Shown here: positions 1-9,677 of the stretch, in pieces | How positions within the stretch are numbered: the first letter of the stretch is position 1 | Layout: the number at the start of each line of letters is the position of its first letter | Assembly: GCF_003334315.1 (NCBI RefSeq) | Contig: NZ_QOWR01000068.1 | DNA length: 20,473 nt | Strand: one strand, 5' to 3' | DNA from: Escherichia coli | Lineage (GTDB): Bacteria > Pseudomonadota > Gammaproteobacteria > Enterobacterales > Enterobacteriaceae | The notes under the pieces: model-generated | The model's database searches: none | What the model was told of the DNA's origin: nothing | Seen by the model: the letters and a program-made list of their open reading frames with translations, nothing else | Translations under genes and position numbers: made by a program

Positions 1-148
1 GGTTGAGAAGCGGTGTAAGTGAACTGCAGTTGCCATGTTTTACGGCAGTGAGAGCAGAGATAGCGCTGATGTCCGGCGGTGCTTTTGCCGTTACGCACCA
101 CCCCGTCAGTAGCTGAACAGGAGGGACAGCTGATAGAAACAGAAGCCA
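1..148 (-). CDS. insA: IS1 InsA, N-terminal part only (continues past window start)
   Basis: GTG start at 148-146 on the - strand; translation [49 protein letters not shown] matches InsA as I recall it. Confidence 0.85.
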
Positions 149-204
149 CTGGAGCACCTAAAAAACACCATCATACACTAAATCAGTAAGTTGGCAGCAT
201 CACC
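1..204 (-). mobile_element. IS1 left end (terminal inverted repeat plus start of insA), truncated by the window edge
   Basis: Reverse complement of 1-204 reads GGTGATGCTGCCAACTTACTGAT... which I recognise as the IS1 left terminus; the ~23-bp terminal inverted repeat is at 182-204 and the element continues beyond position 1. Confidence 0.9.
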
Positions 205-326
205 CGGGTTGTCAGTTCCGATTAGATAGAACCATGTCATCACGGTCAGAATTATGTTGATGGTGAGCGTCAACTTTGACAGGTATTTTGTTAAAAATGA
301 AGAATTCATTTCCTTTCTTGCTTTCC

Positions 327-1265
327 TTATTGGTTTTTCACGTCAAGATTAATTATTGTTGATGCATTTTTCGAAGGTGAGGGGAGACGAATGCCACTCA
401 ACCTGTTAATGATGGATTCGCAGAATACAATGTCATTATCTTTCTGACTTGCATCAAATGCAGATATGCCACCATAACCGTCTGCGAATATCCTGGCATG
501 ACACACCGCATCATTAGCACCATCGATTCCGGAAATGGCTTTTGATAATGCATCCGTAATTATTTTAGTGTCATGCACTAATTCCTTCTTGCTTCGTCCA
601 TCCTGAGTGGCGAATGAGTATTCTTTCTTTACAGTTTCATCACAATATAATGCTGCACTTTCAGGTGAGTACATTCTCAGTTCCAGCCAGCTTGAGCTTG
701 CACTCGAACCGGCGCTATTCACCCATGTCATTAACATGCTTTCTTTTTTGGCTACCCTGACGACGTACACATCCGTAGTATTCGGACCACCCGCTATGGT
801 TGAGCAGATTTTATGAAACTCAATGCCTCTCTTCGTGAGTGATGAGGCAGGATTGAATGTACAATTCTCATTCAGATAACCACCACATTTTGATGGTGCC
901 ATTGATATATATTCAGGGCCGAACTTGGCTGGCATTGACGTTCCAAGGGAAACCTCCCAGCCTAATTCTTTTTTCCTTTTCTCCAACACTGTTGATTTAA
1001 CGCCCATAACATTGATGCGAGCAAATCCAGTGCGGAGTGACATTCCGGAAGCTGTTTGCGTAACACCGTCAGCCCAAACAATATCTGAGTTTGACTGCCA
1101 GTCCCACGACAAGCCGTGACCAGCATCCGGCATTGCTGAATAAACAAAATCACCCAACTCAGAACTGGGCCTTCCCGAAAGAGATTCGGGGGAAATATCT
1201 TCAGCGGATATAGCGTAAGGCGGGAGCATCGCAACCATAACAGATAACAGTATTAATCCTTTCAT
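327..1265 (-). CDS. hypothetical secreted protein (312 aa), family unassigned
   Basis: 1008-nt open frame on the - strand (track ORF 327..1334). The likely start is the internal ATG at 1265-1263, preceded by AGGA about 10 nt upstream. N-terminus MKGLILLSVMVAMLPPYAISA-EDI is a classic Sec signal peptide with an AxA cleavage site. Stop TAA at 329-327. Several rare ATA Ile codons and roughly 44% GC by eye. Confidence 0.6.
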   Translation of the reverse strand: MKGLILLSVMVAMLPPYAISAEDISPESLSGRPSSELGDFVYSAMPDAGHGLSWDWQSNSDIVWADGVTQTASGMSLRTGFARINVMGVKSTVLEKRKKELGWEVSLGTSMPAKFGPEYISMAPSKCGGYLNENCTFNPASSLTKRGIEFHKICSTIAGGPNTTDVYVVRVAKKESMLMTWVNSAGSSASSSWLELRMYSPESAALYCDETVKKEYSFATQDGRSKKELVHDTKIITDALSKAISGIDGANDAVCHARIFADGYGGISAFDASQKDNDIVFCESIINRLSGIRLPSPSKNASTIINLDVKNQ

Positions 1266-1605
1266 TTGAATCAGTTCCTGAAGCGAACATTCAGAACATT
1301 CAACAAGCCCAGTGAAGGCCGCAAGACATTTCAACCGTTAGGCGAACCAACCAGACTCAGTACATCCATATTCTGCGAGAACAAGGATGCCCACAAATCA
1401 CTGGATTCTCCCTTGGTTTATGTTGGTGCGCATAATGTATATTATGTTAAATCATGTCTGAGTGATGCGAAGTGCTTTTCTGGTAGTCGTTATTCGTTCA
1501 GGGTTCAAGAACTTAAGCCTCTCCTCTTTCATAATTGGCCTGTGCATGGAGAAATAGCCTGGTTATTCCCTGCCCCATGCTAAGAGCGCAGTGTCTGTCG
1601 CATAG

Positions 1606-1860
1606 ACACTGCATACGAAAACACCAGAGGGTGCTGTTACTTATTTAAGGACGGATCAAGCGGGAATGAGTCCACTCCGGTATCAGAAATGGCTACGTCT
1701 CAATGAAGTCAGGCGACCGATGCTGAATGAACATTACGATGTCACCACAGCAGCCTATGCTGTCGGTTACGAAAGCTATCCCATTTCAGTCGGGAATATT
1801 CGCGGATGTTTGGAGAGTCACCCAAGAGAGATATTACCAGGTTAAGAAAGTCTGTCGGAC
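1606..1860 (+). pseudogene. AraC-family regulator C-terminal HTH remnant, frameshifted (possibly the K-12 yneL-type fragment)
   Basis: Frame 1 (open from 1606) reads ...GMSPLRYQKWLRLNEVRRPMLNEHYDVTTAAYAVGYESYP, which fits the AraC second-HTH pattern (G-x-SP..Y....RL...A...L......I..IA..VGY.S). The expected tail continues in another frame (FQSGIFADVWRVTQERYYQVKK, part of track ORF 1727..1948). No start codon or N-terminal domain. Confidence 0.45.
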
Positions 1861-2113
1861 AGCTTTAATAAACCCTGCACTTATCTGTTTAGAGCAATTC
1901 GGTGTTAGTTTCAGCAAGCAAACATTAACCATAGCTAATGATTTATAGCCATATTAACCATTGGTAGCTCTTGACCTTTCCTGACACTTCCCTTGTTCGC
2001 AATAATATTCTGTTTAGTCACGGTTTATAAATAACATGCATAATGAAATCGTCATGTTATTTAGCGACATAAAATGTTTTTGCAAATACTCTCTTCAACA
2101 AGTGCAGCAATAA

Positions 2114-3349
2114 ACTTGTTGTGGAACCAATATCCAGGTCGCAGGATATCGCTATTCTACGCAAGGTTTTTATAACTTATCCGACAGTGCATACAGTCGA
2201 ATGAGTGGTTACACCGTCAAGCCTCCTACCGGAGACAGCAATGAGCAGACACAATTTATTGATTATTTTAATCTGTTCTACAGTAAGCGTGGTCAGGAAC
2301 AAATAAGCATCTCTCAGCAGCTTGGAAATTACGGTACGACATTTTTCAGTGCCAGTCGCCAAAGTTACTGGAACACGTCACGCAGCGACCAGCAAATATC
2401 ATTTGGATTAAATGTGCCGTTTGGTGATATTACGACTTCGCTGAATTACAGCTATTCCAATAATATATGGCAAAACGATCGGGATCATTTACTCGCTTTT
2501 ACGCTTAATGTTCCCTTTAGTCATTGGATGCGTACAGACAGTCAGTCGGCATTTCGTAATTCAAATGCCAGTTACAGTATGTCAAACGATTTGAAAGGCG
2601 GCATGACCAATCTATCGGGGGTTTATGGCACTCTGCTGCCGGATAATAACCTGAATTATAGCGTTCAGGTCGGTAACACCCAAGGGGGTAATACATCGTC
2701 TGGCACCAGTGGTTACAGTTCTCTTAATTATCGTGGAGCTTACGGTAATACGAATGTCGGTTACAGTCGGAGTGGTGACAGCAGCCAGATTTATTACGGA
2801 ATGAGTGGTGGGGTTATTGCTCATGCTGATGGCATCACCTTTGGACAGCCGCTGGGCGACACAATGGTTCTGGTTAAGGCTCCTGGCGCTGATAATGTCA
2901 AAATAGAGAACCAGACCGGAATTCATACCGACTGGCGTGGCTATGCAATATTACCATTTGCGACAGAATATAGAGAAAATCGTGTCGCTCTTAACGCGAA
3001 TTCCCTTGCAGATAATGTTGAACTGGATGAAACCGTAGTCACTGTCATCCCAACTCACGGTGCTATTGCCAGAGCAACATTTAATGCACAAATCGGCGGG
3101 AAAGTATTAATGACGTTGAAGTACGGTAATAAAAGCGTTCCATTCGGTGCAATTGTCACACACGGAGAGAATAAAAATGGCAGCATTGTCGCGGAAAACG
3201 GTCAGGTTTATCTGACTGGACTTCCACAGTCAGGGAAATTACAGGTTTCATGGGGCAAAGATAAAAACTCAAACTGTATTGTCGAGTACAAGCTTCCTGA
3301 AGTTTCTCCTGGTACCTTACTGAACCAGCAGACAGCAATCTGTCGCTAA
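2114..3349 (+). pseudogene. ydeT: fimbrial usher (FimD-like), C-terminal ~410 codons only; 5-prime truncated
   Basis: Frame is open from the stop at 2111-2113 and FimD-like homology starts immediately (GYRYSTQGFYNLSDSAYSRMSGY... through ...LLNQQTAICR). No N-terminal plug or barrel start, no signal peptide. The track ORF begins at an internal ATG (2201). Confidence 0.85.
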
Positions 3350-3362
3350 GGAACAATAGATT

Positions 3363-3893
3363 ATGAAATACAATAACATTATTTTCCTCGGTTTATGTCT
3401 GGGGTTAACCACCTATTCTGCTTTATCCGCAGATAGCGTTATTAAAATTAGCGGGCGCGTCCTCGATTATGGCTGCACAGTCTCATCGGATTCGCTTAAT
3501 TTTACCGTAGATCTCCAAAAAAACAGTGCCAGACAATTTCCAACGACCGGTAGCACAAGTCCAGCCGTCCCTTTTCAGATTACGTTAAGTGAATGCAGCA
3601 AAGGGACAACGGGGGTTCGGGTTGCATTTAACGGTATTGAGGATGCAGAAAATAATACTTTGTTGAAACTGGATGAAGGAAGCAATACGGCCTCCGGTTT
3701 GGGTATAGAAATATTGGACGCAAATATGCGTCCGGTGAAACTGAATGATCTTCATGCCGGGATGCAGTGGATCCCACTGGTACCAGAACAGAACAATATT
3801 TTGCCTTACTCCGCTCGTCTGAAGTCAACTCAGAAGTCCGTCAATCCGGGACTGGTGAGGGCTTCGGCAACCTTTACCCTTGAATTTCAATAA
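3363..3893 (+). CDS. ydeS: fimbrial minor subunit (FimF-like), 176 aa
   Basis: Signal peptide MKYNNIIFLGLCLGLTTYSALSA, conserved Cys pair, pilin-like C-terminal strand; AAGGAA 7 nt upstream; 13-bp gap after the usher fragment. Confidence 0.85.
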   Translation: MKYNNIIFLGLCLGLTTYSALSADSVIKISGRVLDYGCTVSSDSLNFTVDLQKNSARQFPTTGSTSPAVPFQITLSECSKGTTGVRVAFNGIEDAENNTLLKLDEGSNTASGLGIEILDANMRPVKLNDLHAGMQWIPLVPEQNNILPYSARLKSTQKSVNPGLVRASATFTLEFQ

Positions 3894-3905
3894 TCAGAGT
3901 CAGAT

Positions 3906-4409
3906 ATGAAAAGACTTCACAAGAGGTTCCTGTTAGCTACGTTTTGCGCGTTATTCACAGCAACTCTCCAGGCCGCCGATGTCACTATCACTGTTAATGG
4001 TCGGGTAGTCGCTAAACCCTGCACTATTCAAACCAAAGAAGCTAACGTTAATCTCGGGGATCTTTATACGCGCAATCTGCAACAACCTGGTTCTGCATCT
4101 GGCTGGCACAATATTACTTTGTCATTAACCGATTGTCCGGTTGAAACAAGTGCAGTGACGGCAATCGTGACAGGTTCAACTGACAATACGGGTTATTACA
4201 AAAATGAAGGTACTGCCGAAAATATTCAGATAGAGCTGAGGGATGACCAGGATGCTGCGTTAAAAAATGGCGATAGCAAAACGGTTATTGTTGATGAGAT
4301 CACTCATAATGCACAGTTTCCACTTAAGGCAAGAGCTATCACGGTGAATGGAAACGCAAGCCAGGGAACGATCGAGGCGCTAATCAATGTGATCTACACC
4401 TGGCAATAA
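3906..4409 (+). CDS. ydeR: fimbrial minor subunit (FimG-like), 167 aa
   Basis: Signal peptide [23 protein letters not shown], pilin-like fold signature, tightly spaced after ydeS. Confidence 0.85.
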
Positions 4410-4467
4410 CGTCGATTCGATTTTCTTAGCCTTCTTTTTAAATCAATTTTTAACCTTAGGATATATC

Positions 4468-5382
4468 ATGGGTAAAACAATCAGTATAAAGGTCCTGTTC
4501 GGTATTTATCTTCTATTAATGGCAGGCAAAGTTTTTGCCTTCAGTTGTAATGTCGATGGCGGGTCAAGTATTGGAGCAGGTACAACCTCTGTTTATGTTA
4601 ATCTCGACCCTGTAATACAGCCGGGCCAGAATCTGGTTGTAGACTTGTCTCAGCATATAAGTTGCTGGAATGATTACGGCGGCTGGTACGACACTGATCA
4701 TATAAACCTGGTACAAGGCTCAGCTTTCGCAGGCTCCCTACAGTCATATAAAGGATCGCTGTACTGGAATAATGTGACCTACCCCTTCCCGTTGACGACA
4801 AATACCAACGTATTGGATATTGGTGATAAGACACCGATGCCATTACCGTTAAAACTCTATATTACCCCAGTTGGGGCGGCCGGTGGAGTTGTCATAAAAG
4901 CGGGGGAAGTCATTGCCCGTATTCATATGTATAAAATTGCAACATTAGGAAGCGGAAATCCGCGTAATTTTACGTGGAATATTATTTCAAATAACAATGT
5001 TGTTATGCCAACAGGCGGCTGCACCGTTGATAGTCGTAATGTCACCGTGGATCTCCCGGACTTTCCTGGAAGCGCAGAAATACCCCTTGGCGTATATTGC
5101 TCAAGCGAACAAAAGCTCTCATTTTATCTTTCGGGTGCCACCACTGACAGTAGCCGACAAGTGTTTGCTAACACAGCACCTGATGCAACAAAAGCATCGG
5201 GAGTGGGTGTCACTCTAATGCGTAATGGAAAAATACTGGCTACGGGAGAAAATGTCTCCCTGGGGACAGTAAATAAAAGCAAAGTACCTCTGGGTTTAAG
5301 CGCAACCTATGGACAAACAGGAAACAAGGTTTCAGCCGGAACCGTCCAGTCAGTCATTGGTGTCACTTTTATCTATGAATAA
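4468..5382 (+). CDS. ydeQ: FimH-like fimbrial tip adhesin, 304 aa
   Basis: Clear FimH-like similarity along the whole length (e.g. [46 protein letters not shown]); signal peptide; AGGA upstream. Confidence 0.88.
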
Positions 5383-5454
5383 TTGTGATTTTGACCTTAG
5401 TCTATGCGCTCCATTCACGAAAATTGCGCGGATAATTATTTTGTGAAGGCTATT

Positions 5455-5472
5455 AGCCTACACCTGTAAGAA
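5455..5472 (+). promoter_or_regulatory. EvgA-box-like dyad upstream of ydeP
   Basis: AGCCTACA-CC-TGTAAGAA against the 18-bp EvgA consensus TTCYTACA-N2-TGTARGAA as I recall it (right half perfect, left half 6/8). Confidence 0.6.
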
Positions 5473-5564
5473 AATCCGCGCACAATTGAAGCCAGAGTCT
5501 TATTTTTTATATTGAAAAATATGTTAATTTAAACACTATGAGAGATGATGCTTAACTTATCGTA

Positions 5565-5596
5565 TTTAATCTATTGTTTAACGATAATAGATTAAA
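5565..5596 (+). promoter_or_regulatory. perfect 11-bp inverted repeat with 10-bp spacer (candidate operator) upstream of ydeP
   Basis: TTTAATCTATT-gtttaacgat-AATAGATTAAA, about 120 bp upstream of the ydeP ATG. Confidence 0.35.
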
Positions 5597-5715
5597 AATA
5601 GAAAGAGAGTAGTCCCCTACTCTTATATATCCATGTTGGCGATAATCCCTTTGTATGTACTGTGCATCATCGCTATTACAAATCCTAATAATTCATTTCC
5701 ACACAGGATAAGTAG

Positions 5716-7995
5716 ATGAAGAAAAAAATTGAATCCTACCAGGGTGCTGCAGGTGGTTGGGGTGCTGTTAAATCCGTAGCGAATGCAGTACGTAAGCAGA
5801 TGGATATACGCCAGGATGTTATTGCCATGTTTGACATGAATAAGCCAGAGGGCTTTGACTGTCCGGGTTGTGCATGGCCAGATCCTAAGCACAGTGCGTC
5901 ATTCGACATTTGTGAAAACGGCGCAAAAGCAATCGCCTGGGAAGTCACGGATAAGCAGGTAAACGCCTCTTTCTTTGCTGAGAATACGGTTCAATCATTA
6001 CTTACCTGGGGAGACCACGAGCTTGAGGCTGCGGGGCGACTCACTCAGCCTTTGAAATATGATGCCGTCAGCGACTGTTACAAGCCATTAAGCTGGCAAC
6101 AAGCTTTCGACGAAATTGGCGCACGCCTTCAAAGCTATAGTGATCCCAATCAGGTTGAATTCTATACTTCGGGCCGCACTTCCAATGAAGCTGCCTTTCT
6201 TTATCAGCTTTTTGCCCGTGAATACGGGAGCAATAACTTTCCCGACTGCTCCAACATGTGCCATGAACCGACAAGCGTGGGTTTGGCAGCGAGTATCGGT
6301 GTAGGTAAAGGGACCGTGTTGCTGGAAGACTTTGAGAAGTGCGATTTAGTCATTTGCATTGGGCATAACCCTGGTACAAACCACCCTCGCATGCTGACTT
6401 CGTTGCGCGCTTTAGTGAAACGGGGAGCGAAAATGATCGCCATCAATCCTCTACAGGAACGTGGCCTGGAGCGATTTACCGCACCGCAAAACCCGTTTGA
6501 AATGCTGACGAACTCTGAGACTCAGTTGGCCAGTGCCTACTATAACGTGCGCATTGGTGGCGATATGGCGTTGCTCAAGGGGATGATGCGCCTGTTAATT
6601 GAGCGCGATGATGCTGCAAGCGCCGCAGGTCGGCCTTCATTGCTTGATGACGAGTTTATTCAAACGCATACCGTCGGCTTTGACGAGCTACGCCGTGACG
6701 TTCTCAATTCCGAGTGGAAAGATATCGAACGTATTTCTGGACTAAGTCAGACACAAATCGCCGAACTGGCTGACGCATATGCCGCTGCCGAACGCACCAT
6801 TATCTGTTACGGAATGGGGATCACTCAGCACGAACATGGTACCCAGAACGTACAGCAACTGGTCAATCTGCTGTTGATGAAAGGTAACATTGGCAAGCCT
6901 GGTGCGGGTATCTGCCCACTACGTGGACACTCTAATGTACAGGGCGACCGAACCGTCGGTATCACCGAGAAACCGTCTGCAGAGTTTCTGGCTCGTCTGG
7001 GTGAGCGCTATGGCTTCACCCCACCTCATGCACCTGGACATGCTGCAATTGCCAGCATGCAAGCAATATGTACGGGGCAGGCTCGAGCATTGATCTGCAT
7101 GGGGGGCAATTTTGCGCTGGCAATGCCAGATCGGGAAGCGAGCGCTGTACCGTTAACGCAATTAGATTTGGCGGTACACGTAGCCACTAAGCTTAACCGC
7201 TCTCATCTGTTGACCGCACGGCATAGCTATATTCTGCCGGTCCTGGGACGTAGCGAGATTGACATGCAAAAAAACGGTGCGCAGGCGGTAACCGTTGAGG
7301 ATTCAATGTCGATGATTCATGCCTCGCGTGGCGTGTTAAAACCCGCCGGTGTAATGCTGAAATCAGAGTGTGCAGTGGTCGCGGGAATCGCGCAGGCAGC
7401 ACTACCCCAGAGCGTGGTAGCCTGGGAGTATCTGGTGGAAGATTATGATCGCATTCGCAATGACATTGAAGCTGTGCTGCCAGAGTTCGCCGACTATAAC
7501 CAGCGCATCCGTCATCCCGGTGGTTTTCACCTGATAAATGCAGCTGCTGAAAGGCGCTGGATGACGCCGTCAGGTAAGGCTAATTTCATTACCAGCAAAG
7601 GGCTGTTAGAAGATCCCTCTTCAGCGTTTAACAGTAAGCTGGTCATGGCGACAGTACGCAGCCACGATCAGTACAACACGACGATTTATGGTATGGATGA
7701 TCGCTATCGAGGGGTATTCGGTCAACGAGATGTGGTCTTTATGAGTGCTAAACAAGCTAAAATTTGCCGTGTAAAAAACGGCGAAAGAGTTAATCTTATT
7801 GCGCTTACGCCAGACGGTAAGCGCAGCTCACGCCGCATGGATAGATTAAAAGTGGTCATTTACCCTATGGCTGACCGCTCACTGGTGACCTATTTTCCAG
7901 AATCGAATCACATGCTAACACTTGATAACCACGATCCATTAAGTGGCATTCCTGGCTATAAAAGTATTCCGGTTGAATTAGAACCATCAAATTAA
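5716..7995 (+). CDS. ydeP: molybdopterin oxidoreductase, formate-dehydrogenase-like; acid-resistance protein, 759 aa
   Basis: Recognised sequence ([25 protein letters not shown]...); N-terminal Cys cluster CPGCAWPD; AGGA upstream. Confidence 0.9.
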
Positions 7996-8010
7996 TGCCT
8001 CTTCTCATTT

Positions 8011-8037
8011 CTTCTGCTGTCATCCGCACAGCAGAAG
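8011..8037 (+). terminator. stem-loop after ydeP (10-bp perfect stem, no U-tract)
   Basis: CTTCTGCTGT-catccgc-ACAGCAGAAG, 16 bp after the ydeP stop. Confidence 0.4.
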
Positions 8038-8113
8038 AATTCCTCATTGACTATTATTTCGCAATTTGCTCACATGGATTAAATTAAACTACATACTATA
8101 AGATATAAACTTC

Positions 8114-8131
8114 TGCCTACAGCTGTAAGAA
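8114..8131 (+). promoter_or_regulatory. EvgA-box-like dyad upstream of safA-ydeO
   Basis: TGCCTACA-GC-TGTAAGAA; same architecture as the ydeP site. Confidence 0.6.
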
Positions 8132-8242
8132 ACTCCGCTCAGTACTGAAGCACCAGTCCTATTTCCTCTTTTCTCCAGCCTGTTATATTAAGCATACTGA
8201 TTAACGATTTTTAACGTTATCCGCTAAATAAACATATTTGAA

Positions 8243-8440
8243 ATGCATGCGACCACAGTGAAAAACAAAATCACGCAAAGAGACAACTATAAAGAAATCA
8301 TGTCTGCAATTGTGGTTGTCTTATTACTGACACTTACGTTGATAGCCATTTTTTCGGCAATTGATCAGCTGAGTATTTCAGAAATGGGTCGCATTGCAAG
8401 AGATCTTACACATTTCATTATCAATAGTTTGCAAGGCTGA
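8243..8440 (+). CDS. safA: small membrane protein SafA (connector between EvgS/EvgA and PhoQ/PhoP), 65 aa
   Basis: Recognised sequence MHATTVKNKITQRDNYKEIMSAIVVVLLLTLTLIAIF... with a single transmembrane helix. Confidence 0.85.
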   Translation: MHATTVKNKITQRDNYKEIMSAIVVVLLLTLTLIAIFSAIDQLSISEMGRIARDLTHFIINSLQG

Positions 8441-8514
8441 AAACAAACAGCAAATTATAAATATGAAATGTTAAAAAAGTATCGATAAAAACTTTATTGT
8501 TTTAAGGAGATAAA

Positions 8515-9276
8515 ATGTCGCTCGTTTGTTCTGTTATATTTATTCATCATGCCTTCAACGCTAACATTTTAGATAAAGATTACGCCTTCTCTGACGGCGA
8601 GATCCTGATGGTAGATAACGCTGTTCGTACGCATTTTGAACCTTATGAGCGGCATTTTAAAGAGATCGGATTTACTGAAAATACCATTAAAAAATATCTA
8701 CAATGCACTAACATCCAGACAGTGACGGTGCCTGTTCCTGCGAAGTTTTTACGTGCTTCAAATGTACCGACTGGATTGCTTAATGAAATGATTGCTTATC
8801 TCAACTCGGAAGAACGCAATCATCATAATTTTTCAGAACTTTTGCTTTTTTCTTGCCTGTCTATTTTTGCCGCATGCAAAGGTTTCATTACACTATTAAC
8901 TAACGGTGTGCTATCCGTTTCCGGAAAAGTGAGAAATATTGTCAACATGAAGCTGGCGCACCCATGGAAGCTGAAAGATATTTGTGACTGCCTGTACATC
9001 AGTGAAAGCCTGTTGAAGAAAAAACTAAAGCAAGAGCAAACGACATTCTCACAGATTCTATTAGATGCCAGAATGCAGCACGCAAAAAATTTGATACGCG
9101 TAGAAGGTTCAGTCAATAAAATTGCCGAACAATGTGGTTATGCCAGTACATCTTATTTTATTTATGCGTTCCGCAAACATTTCGGCAACAGTCCGAAGAG
9201 AGTTTCTAAGGAGTACCGTTGTCAAAGTCACACGGGTATGAATACGGGCAACACGATGAGTGCTTTAGCTATTTGA
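8515..9276 (+). CDS. ydeO: AraC-family acid-resistance transcriptional regulator, 253 aa
   Basis: Recognised sequence; C-terminal AraC HTH (AEQCGYASTSYFIYAFRKHFGNSPKRV); AAGGAG 7 nt upstream; 74-bp gap after safA suggests an operon. Confidence 0.9.
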   Translation: MSLVCSVIFIHHAFNANILDKDYAFSDGEILMVDNAVRTHFEPYERHFKEIGFTENTIKKYLQCTNIQTVTVPVPAKFLRASNVPTGLLNEMIAYLNSEERNHHNFSELLLFSCLSIFAACKGFITLLTNGVLSVSGKVRNIVNMKLAHPWKLKDICDCLYISESLLKKKLKQEQTTFSQILLDARMQHAKNLIRVEGSVNKIAEQCGYASTSYFIYAFRKHFGNSPKRVSKEYRCQSHTGMNTGNTMSALAI

Positions 9277-9324
9277 TTATTTGCTAACGAGTAGTCAACC
9301 ACGCACGCTACGTAAGAATTATAT

Positions 9325-9357
9325 GGGGCAGCCATTCCCTGCCCCGCGTTGTTTTTA
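9325..9357 (+). terminator. intrinsic terminator after ydeO
   Basis: GGGGCAG-ccattcc-CTGCCCC followed by a T-rich run (gcgttgttttt). Confidence 0.6.
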
Positions 9358-9677
9358 GGCGATATATTTATTGAAATAAATAAGTGACATCCATCACATA
9401 TTTATGCACTTGCATAACCTGTTGCATGATTATTTATGATCTCAATTCGGCATTTTGTCAGTAAAATGCAATAATTTATTAAATATCAATAAATTAGTTG
9501 TTTATCGGCGAGAAATTACTTAATAGAACAGAAAGTAATGTCAACGCTTTATGGACTGTTATTTCCCTTTTTTTAGCTAAATCTGCTATCTCTTTATGTG
9601 ACTAACTTCACTTACATCCACTTATTTCTCTTCGTAAAATTACTTCGGAATTAAGTACAATAAGAAGAGGAACATTT

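Follow-up and report, generated by a model that had tools for sequence, protein, structure and literature searches.

The hipBA-f9-ydeP locus of the Escherichia coli strain analysed here hosts, almost certainly, two independent and inherited gene wrecks, both identical to alleles of K-12, yneL and ydeT. The window (the whole stretch of DNA analysed, 20,473 nucleotides) features the standard K-12 ydeT/yneL configuration, a broken F9 (Yde/Fml) pilus operon that had been annotated and published before; the original prediction had not recognized it as such. No observation made here speaks against this structural reading. F9 is a core-associated operon found at one locus, intact or disrupted (PMC3559732). 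Its disruption in K-12 and phylogroup A is already known (Wurpel et al. 2013, 2014), disrupted copies having been described in every phylogroup A genome examined, K-12 and B strains among them (PMC3966885).

The locus was identified by megablast against 5426 complete E. coli genomes, which assigned positions 1-6000 of the window to the hipBA - fimbrial - ydeP - safA - ydeO locus. The window is colinear with the DNA of strain MB46 from 205 to 12001 (99.4% identity), and with the MG1655 chromosome from 1400 to 10202 (99.56% identity, zero gaps), the deletion junction described below being included in the latter alignment. The features found correspond to K-12 yneL (b1506, pseudogene) and ydeT (b1505), followed by ydeS, ydeR, ydeQ and ydeP. 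In MB46, J-8 and K-12, all colinear with the window, hipBA lies upstream and ydeP-safA-ydeO downstream, and the fimbrial genes occupy the F9 site between hipBA and ydeP; the same hipBA and ydeP sides are given as f9 flanks in PMC3966885.

The deletion was mapped against strain J-8 (locus L002), which has a complete operon of six genes, encoding a FimA-like major subunit, a chaperone, an 883-aa usher, YdeS, YdeR and YdeQ. Positions 205-2123 of the window match L002 6001-7919, and positions 2123-12000 match L002 11199-21076, both without gaps. At the junction, which reads …AACTTGTTGTG|GAACCAATATCC…, the G at 2123 can be assigned to either side, a microhomology of 1 bp. The gap begins 178 bp before the ATG of the major-subunit gene and ends at usher codon 475 (11199-9774 = 1425 nt = 475 codons); lost with it are the 5' UTR from +74 onwards, the genes for the major subunit and the chaperone, and the first 475 codons of the usher gene. 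The same junction is found, gap-free, in MG1655, and the allele is that of the K-12-type ydeT deletion. By alignment to an intact operon, a check that the original prediction had proposed, the loss is resolved into a single clean deletion of 3279 bp, joined at 2123|2124. Homology to the chaperone, to the major subunit and to the N-terminal half of the usher was not detected anywhere in the 20.5-kb window by tblastn with J-8 queries (E<=1e-3). The predicted absence of the chaperone and major-subunit genes is borne out by these searches, which were empty for both, and the window has neither an intact usher start nor an in-frame chaperone that would shift the predicted 5' boundary. As it has lost chaperone, major subunit and the first 475 residues of the usher, the locus is a disrupted member of the F9 group. 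Pilus assembly from it is impossible, because the cognate chaperone and a complete usher are absent. The coordinates of all features are reported in Table 1.

Table 1. Features of the disrupted F9 locus and of its upstream flank (positions refer to the window)
Feature	Position	Strand	Description and evidence
yneL pseudogene	1660-1868	+	3'-terminal ~68 codons, covering just the second HTH motif, of an AraC_N + HTH_18 regulator of ~310 aa; own stop at 1866-1868
f9 promoter, retained	2015-2051	+	-35 TAGTCA (2015-2020), 18-bp spacer, -10 CATAAT (2039-2044), start G at 2051
f9 5' untranslated leader, first ~73 nt	2052-2123	+	gap-free alignment to L002 6001-7919, junction read base by base
Deletion junction	2123-2124		base-by-base reading against J-8; L002 7920-11198 (3279 bp) absent
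ydeT, 3' part of usher gene	2123-3349	+	final 408 codons and stop codon of the gene for the F9 usher (residues 476-883; distal barrel and PapC_C)
ydeS, FimF-like adaptor pilin, 176 aa, intact	3363-3893	+	NCBIfam FimF NF052362, 239.7 bits (cut-off 200)
ydeR, FimG-like minor pilin, 167 aa, intact	3906-4409	+	NCBIfam FimG NF052363, 255.8 bits (cut-off 220)
ydeQ, two-domain tip adhesin = FmlH (F9 adhesin), 304 aa, intact	4468-5382	+	matches to FmlH 6aow and FimH

At the deletion endpoints neither IS ends nor direct repeats were found beyond the 1-bp overlap. The lack of IS remnants and of longer repeats points to a simple illegitimate deletion as origin of the junction; a single non-homologous event, which started at +74 of the leader and reached usher codon 475, removed pilin, chaperone and the front part of the usher at once. 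It is extremely improbable that the truncation of the usher reflects an assembly or sequencing artefact, or a deletion mediated by an IS. An IS1 end is found at window 1-204, and IS elements are common at the f9 locus in other strains; however, this IS1 is located 1.9 kb from the junction, in an unrelated gene, neither IS sequence nor traces of an inverted repeat are found at the junction, and the identical junction was found in one piece, by using a 200-bp query centred on it, in 1375 of the 5426 complete genomes (25%), all independently assembled and MG1655 among them. An artefact of sequencing or assembly was rejected on account of the latter finding.

The simple deletion is one of the several, independent f9-inactivating alleles found in E. 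coli. The deleted segment is present, with at least 80% of its 3279 bp covered, in 3538/5426 genomes (65%), and the ydeSRQ segment, by the same 80% threshold, in 5139/5426 (95%). In B strains a different deletion has left the HTH of yneL joined to the C-terminal end of the major pilin (P0067; the BL21-type YneL-FimA' chimera, PMC9308461). Other alleles feature a 5' deletion by which the segment has lost its initial 446 bp, or IS3/ISVsa5 insertions in the usher gene (H36, H46). In PSS-04, which carries the same junction as the window, an IS1 resides inside ydeQ (L004 8988-10679).

The usher remnant is found in the frame that opens after a TAA at 2111-2113 and stays open through 3349, with zero internal stops in its 408 codons. 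The 408-aa translation of 2123-3346 matches the Pfam Usher model PF00577 (E 2.5e-85) at model positions 259-549 of 549 only, and also matches PapC_C (E 8.6e-22). Similarly, the match to the NCBIfam usher model NF011740 spans positions 470-877 of 877, and its score (459.8) is below the cut-off of 995. Identity to the J-8 usher, over residues 476-883 of the latter, is 98.5%; in this J-8 protein of 883 residues, PapC_N (43-195), Usher (213-795) and PapC_C (804-868) domains are recognized. A complete usher has a signal peptide, PapC_N, a whole barrel with plug, and PapC_C; signal peptide, PapC_N and the proximal barrel, 475 of 883 residues (54%), are missing here. A usher truncated at its 5' end, opening right after the stop at 2111-2113, with homology starting mid-protein (at model position 259) and with more than half of the protein gone, is what had been originally read from the sequence, and both the position and the extent of the loss agree with the present data. 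In MB46, PGAP annotates the span corresponding to window 2123-3349 as 'ydeT fimbria/pilus outer membrane usher protein, missing N-terminus'. The first in-frame ATG, at 2201, opens an ORF of 382 aa, the one that the K-12 annotation lists as b1505; no obvious Shine-Dalgarno sequence is seen upstream of this ATG. Lacking a signal peptide, the YdeT' product would be inert in the cytoplasm, if translated at all.

The second wreck, yneL, is what remains of an AraC-type regulator. Its sequence is read in two frames, the first (window 1660-1776) encoding AGMSPLRYQKWLRLNEVRRPMLNEHYDVTTAAYAVGYES, the second (1776-1865) encoding LSHFSREYSRMFGESPKRDITRLRKSVGQL, followed by the stop. The frame-repaired peptide matches Pfam HTH_18 (E 1.3e-16) at model positions 16-76 only. 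The frameshift is due to the deletion of 1 nt at about 1776-1778, as evidenced by comparison to unframeshifted E. coli fragments, which read …GYESLSHFSREY…. PGAP denominates the same span in MB46 (window 1660-1868) 'helix-turn-helix domain-containing protein, frameshifted, missing N-terminus', and the remnant is colinear with K-12 yneL b1506. An AraC-type HTH readable across two frames had been predicted from position 1606 onwards: the reading is sound for 1660-1868, where the HTH_18 score rules out a chance match, and fails for 1606-1659, a tract that shows no AraC homology and is merely an extension of the open frame.

Homology to AraC-type proteins begins at window 1660, which corresponds to residue ~240 of a 310-aa relative, and tblastn with full-length relatives (P0124, P0139) detected no N-terminal AraC homology in window 1-2300. 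AraC/XylS proteins carry two HTH motifs in a single frame and an N-terminal sensing/dimerisation domain (AraC_N, PF06719). In yneL the first HTH and AraC_N are absent, and the second HTH requires repair of the frameshift. The remnant cannot act as a regulator. No full-length yneL ortholog was found by a word-indexed search and an HMMER scan of 1.84 billion representatives, and the close relatives retrieved from the same two protein collections are all fragments of 162 aa or less, so that none can be placed at this locus as the complete ancestral gene. The nearest full-length relative is a protein of 310 aa (P0124), which features AraC_N (residues 33-184) and HTH_18, and aligns with the window at residues 240-300 only (73% identity). 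Unframeshifted yneL fragments, 82-162 aa long and with varied N-terminal ends, are found in some E. coli and in other Enterobacteriaceae. As these fragments have different N-terminal ends, decay of the yneL regulator seems to have taken several routes in different lineages. The 5' flank of f9 has been described as variable, hosting hypothetical regulators of no known link to f9 (PMC3966885).

The yneL and usher remnants are on the same strand and only 254 bp of DNA separate the yneL stop codon from the deletion junction at 2123. According to the original prediction the HTH remnant was fused to the usher at one degraded junction, and a single rearrangement, a deletion running from inside the AraC regulator gene into the usher and fusing the remnants, would give such an arrangement. 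A genuine fusion of this kind is known in another lineage, the BL21-type chimera mentioned above. For the window a single event is nonetheless hardly credible. The yneL remnant retains its natural C-terminus and its stop codon; the 254 bp that follow align colinearly with the DNA that hosts the promoter in intact operons, and represent the native f9 upstream region, promoter and start (2015-2051) included; finally, the identical yneL remnant, frameshifted and truncated at the N-terminus, is found in J-8 upstream of a complete six-gene operon. These three observations together indicate that the two lesions are independent, and the predicted fusion has to be abandoned. The yneL remnant, a separate and probably much older relic, cannot be younger than the f9 deletion, and was not made by it. 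The view of yneL and ydeT as products of a single event is corrected accordingly.

The f9 promoter escaped the deletion. In CFT073 the f9 start was mapped by 5' RACE to a G located 251 nt upstream of the major-subunit ATG, and is preceded by a CATAAT -10 and a TAGTCG -35 hexamer separated by an 18-bp spacer (Wurpel et al. 2014, PMC3966885). The mapped start falls in J-8 at L002 7847, which corresponds to window 2051, also a G; the window position is assigned by homology with the CFT073 mapping. A promoter scan of the window retrieved TAGTCA-18-CATAAT at 2015-2044, the -35 hexamer being one base off the CFT073 one as reported in the text of PMC3966885. H-NS binds and represses f9, and f9 is expressed at 20 C (PMC3966885). 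Since the promoter and ~73 nt of the leader are retained, the ydeT'-ydeS-ydeR-ydeQ genes probably remain a weakly transcribed unit under the old H-NS and temperature regulation. The surviving promoter explains how K-12 data can still show the ydeT-ydeQ remnant as a transcription unit subject to regulation.

The genes located downstream from the usher remnant have no internal stops, and their products differ by 2-3 residues from those of J-8 and by 0-1 from those of K-12. YdeS shows 2 substitutions relative to J-8 and none relative to K-12, and YdeR is full length with 3 substitutions relative to J-8. YdeQ is a FimH-like, two-domain protein and represents the F9 tip adhesin FmlH: residues 25-184 match the lectin domain of FmlH, a solved structure (6aow; E 5e-107), and the protein aligns to FimH over its full length (E 1e-81). 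The early reading of ydeS, ydeR and ydeQ as intact genes, the last encoding a FimH-like adhesin, was correct on both counts. If made, the three products would be exported by the Sec pathway and then most likely degraded in the periplasm, because their chaperone is missing.

The orphan YdeS-YdeR-YdeQ/FmlH module might alternatively have been kept as functional, being expressed from the f9 promoter and assembled on another pilus, for example by the type 1 FimC/FimD proteins. The promoter and the transcription start are still present, the three genes are intact both in the window and in K-12, YdeS exceeds the curated cut-off for FimF, YdeR exceeds that for FimG and YdeQ aligns to FimH throughout its length, and ydeSRQ is more frequent than the deleted segment (5139 against 3538 of 5426 genomes). 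A stop-free usher remnant of 408 codons and the presence of ydeSRQ in 95% of the genomes might be signs that some selection persists, as opposed to decay alone. However, nothing in the present analysis supports heterologous assembly of the tip module. In chaperone-usher systems recognition of subunits by the chaperone, and of the adhesin by the usher, is generally specific. Moreover, decay has gone further in some carriers of the junction, as indicated by the ydeQ insertion in PSS-04 and by IS elements in other genomes, and the f9 deletion is maybe too recent for point-mutational decay to be visible. Maintenance of a functional module is on balance very unlikely, and there is just as slight a chance that K-12-type strains express YdeQ and its adaptors at low temperature, or upon relief from H-NS, and display them via a heterologous machine such as FimC/FimD. 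Should the orphan module work, these strains would gain a conditional second adhesin. The reading favoured here is that of an operon inactivated by deletion, the tip proteins of which would be lost in the periplasm.

The DNA upstream of yneL differs among strains. Window 1-204 corresponds to the terminal 204 bp of IS1, and is 98.6% identical to the end of the IS1B annotated in PSS-04. The element interrupts a small hypothetical gene; in MB46 and J-8 this gene is uninterrupted and encodes 119 aa. Because of this IS1 end, the 6-kb query matched every genome many times; window 1-6000 is covered for at least 80% in only 47/5426 genomes. An island of ~3.4 kb, hosting three hypothetical genes, is found between hipA and yneL (window 205-1399; L001 3789-7195). 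One of its genes (327-1265, minus strand) encodes a 312-aa protein with a signal peptide, for which NCBIfam gave no match. Imperfect direct repeats of ~39 bp (L001 3750-3788 and 7196-7234) lie on either side of the island, and K-12 has at this site one copy of the repeat and no island. The f9 junction is found both with the island (window, MB46) and without it (K-12), and J-8 has the island next to an intact operon. Such a distribution suggests recombination near the locus, or repeated gain or loss of the island.

For the decay of fimbrial operons in commensal and laboratory E. coli (phylogroup A) this locus is a textbook example, and it has little import beyond annotation hygiene. The additions made here are modest, and consist of base-level deletion endpoints, of the survival of the mapped f9 promoter along with 73 nt of leader, and of population counts.

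Intact F9 (Fml/Yde) operons, such as CFT073 c1931-c1936, UTI89 fml and that of J-8, share with the window chromosomal position, promoter region, the C-terminal half of the usher (98.5%), both minor pilins and the FmlH adhesin. In contrast to them, the window has neither major subunit nor chaperone, and is missing the leader from +74 on as well as residues 1-475 of the usher. The K-12 MG1655 genes ydeT (b1505), yneL (b1506) and ydeSRQ (b1504-b1502) share with the window the locus, the deletion junction and the yneL frameshift. YdeS and YdeQ are identical in the two, and YdeR differs at 1 residue. K-12 lacks the ~3.4-kb island (three hypothetical genes and an IS1 insertion) that the window has upstream of position 1400. 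Divergence from K-12 is highest in the usher remnant (2123-3349), where 17/1227 nt (1.39%) and 4 amino acids have changed; it amounts to 0.1% in ydeSRQ and to 0.35-0.41% in the flanks. The peak could correspond to a recombination patch, or to locally relaxed constraint.

Compared to AraC_N + HTH_18 regulators, which are ~300-320 aa long, yneL is devoid of ~240 N-terminal residues, corresponding to AraC_N and the first HTH, and what is left is split by the 1-nt frameshift. Type 1 fimbriae (fimAICDFGH) are paralogous to F9, the usher of which resembles FimD; YdeS, YdeR and YdeQ are the counterparts of FimF, FimG and FimH. Type 1 genes sit at a different locus, and the window has no equivalents of FimA, FimC or of the N-terminal part of FimD. 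The reported receptor of the adhesin also differs from that of type 1 fimbriae: Gal-beta1-3GlcNAc glycans have been described as ligands (PMC3966885), and the best match to YdeQ is the solved FmlH lectin domain.
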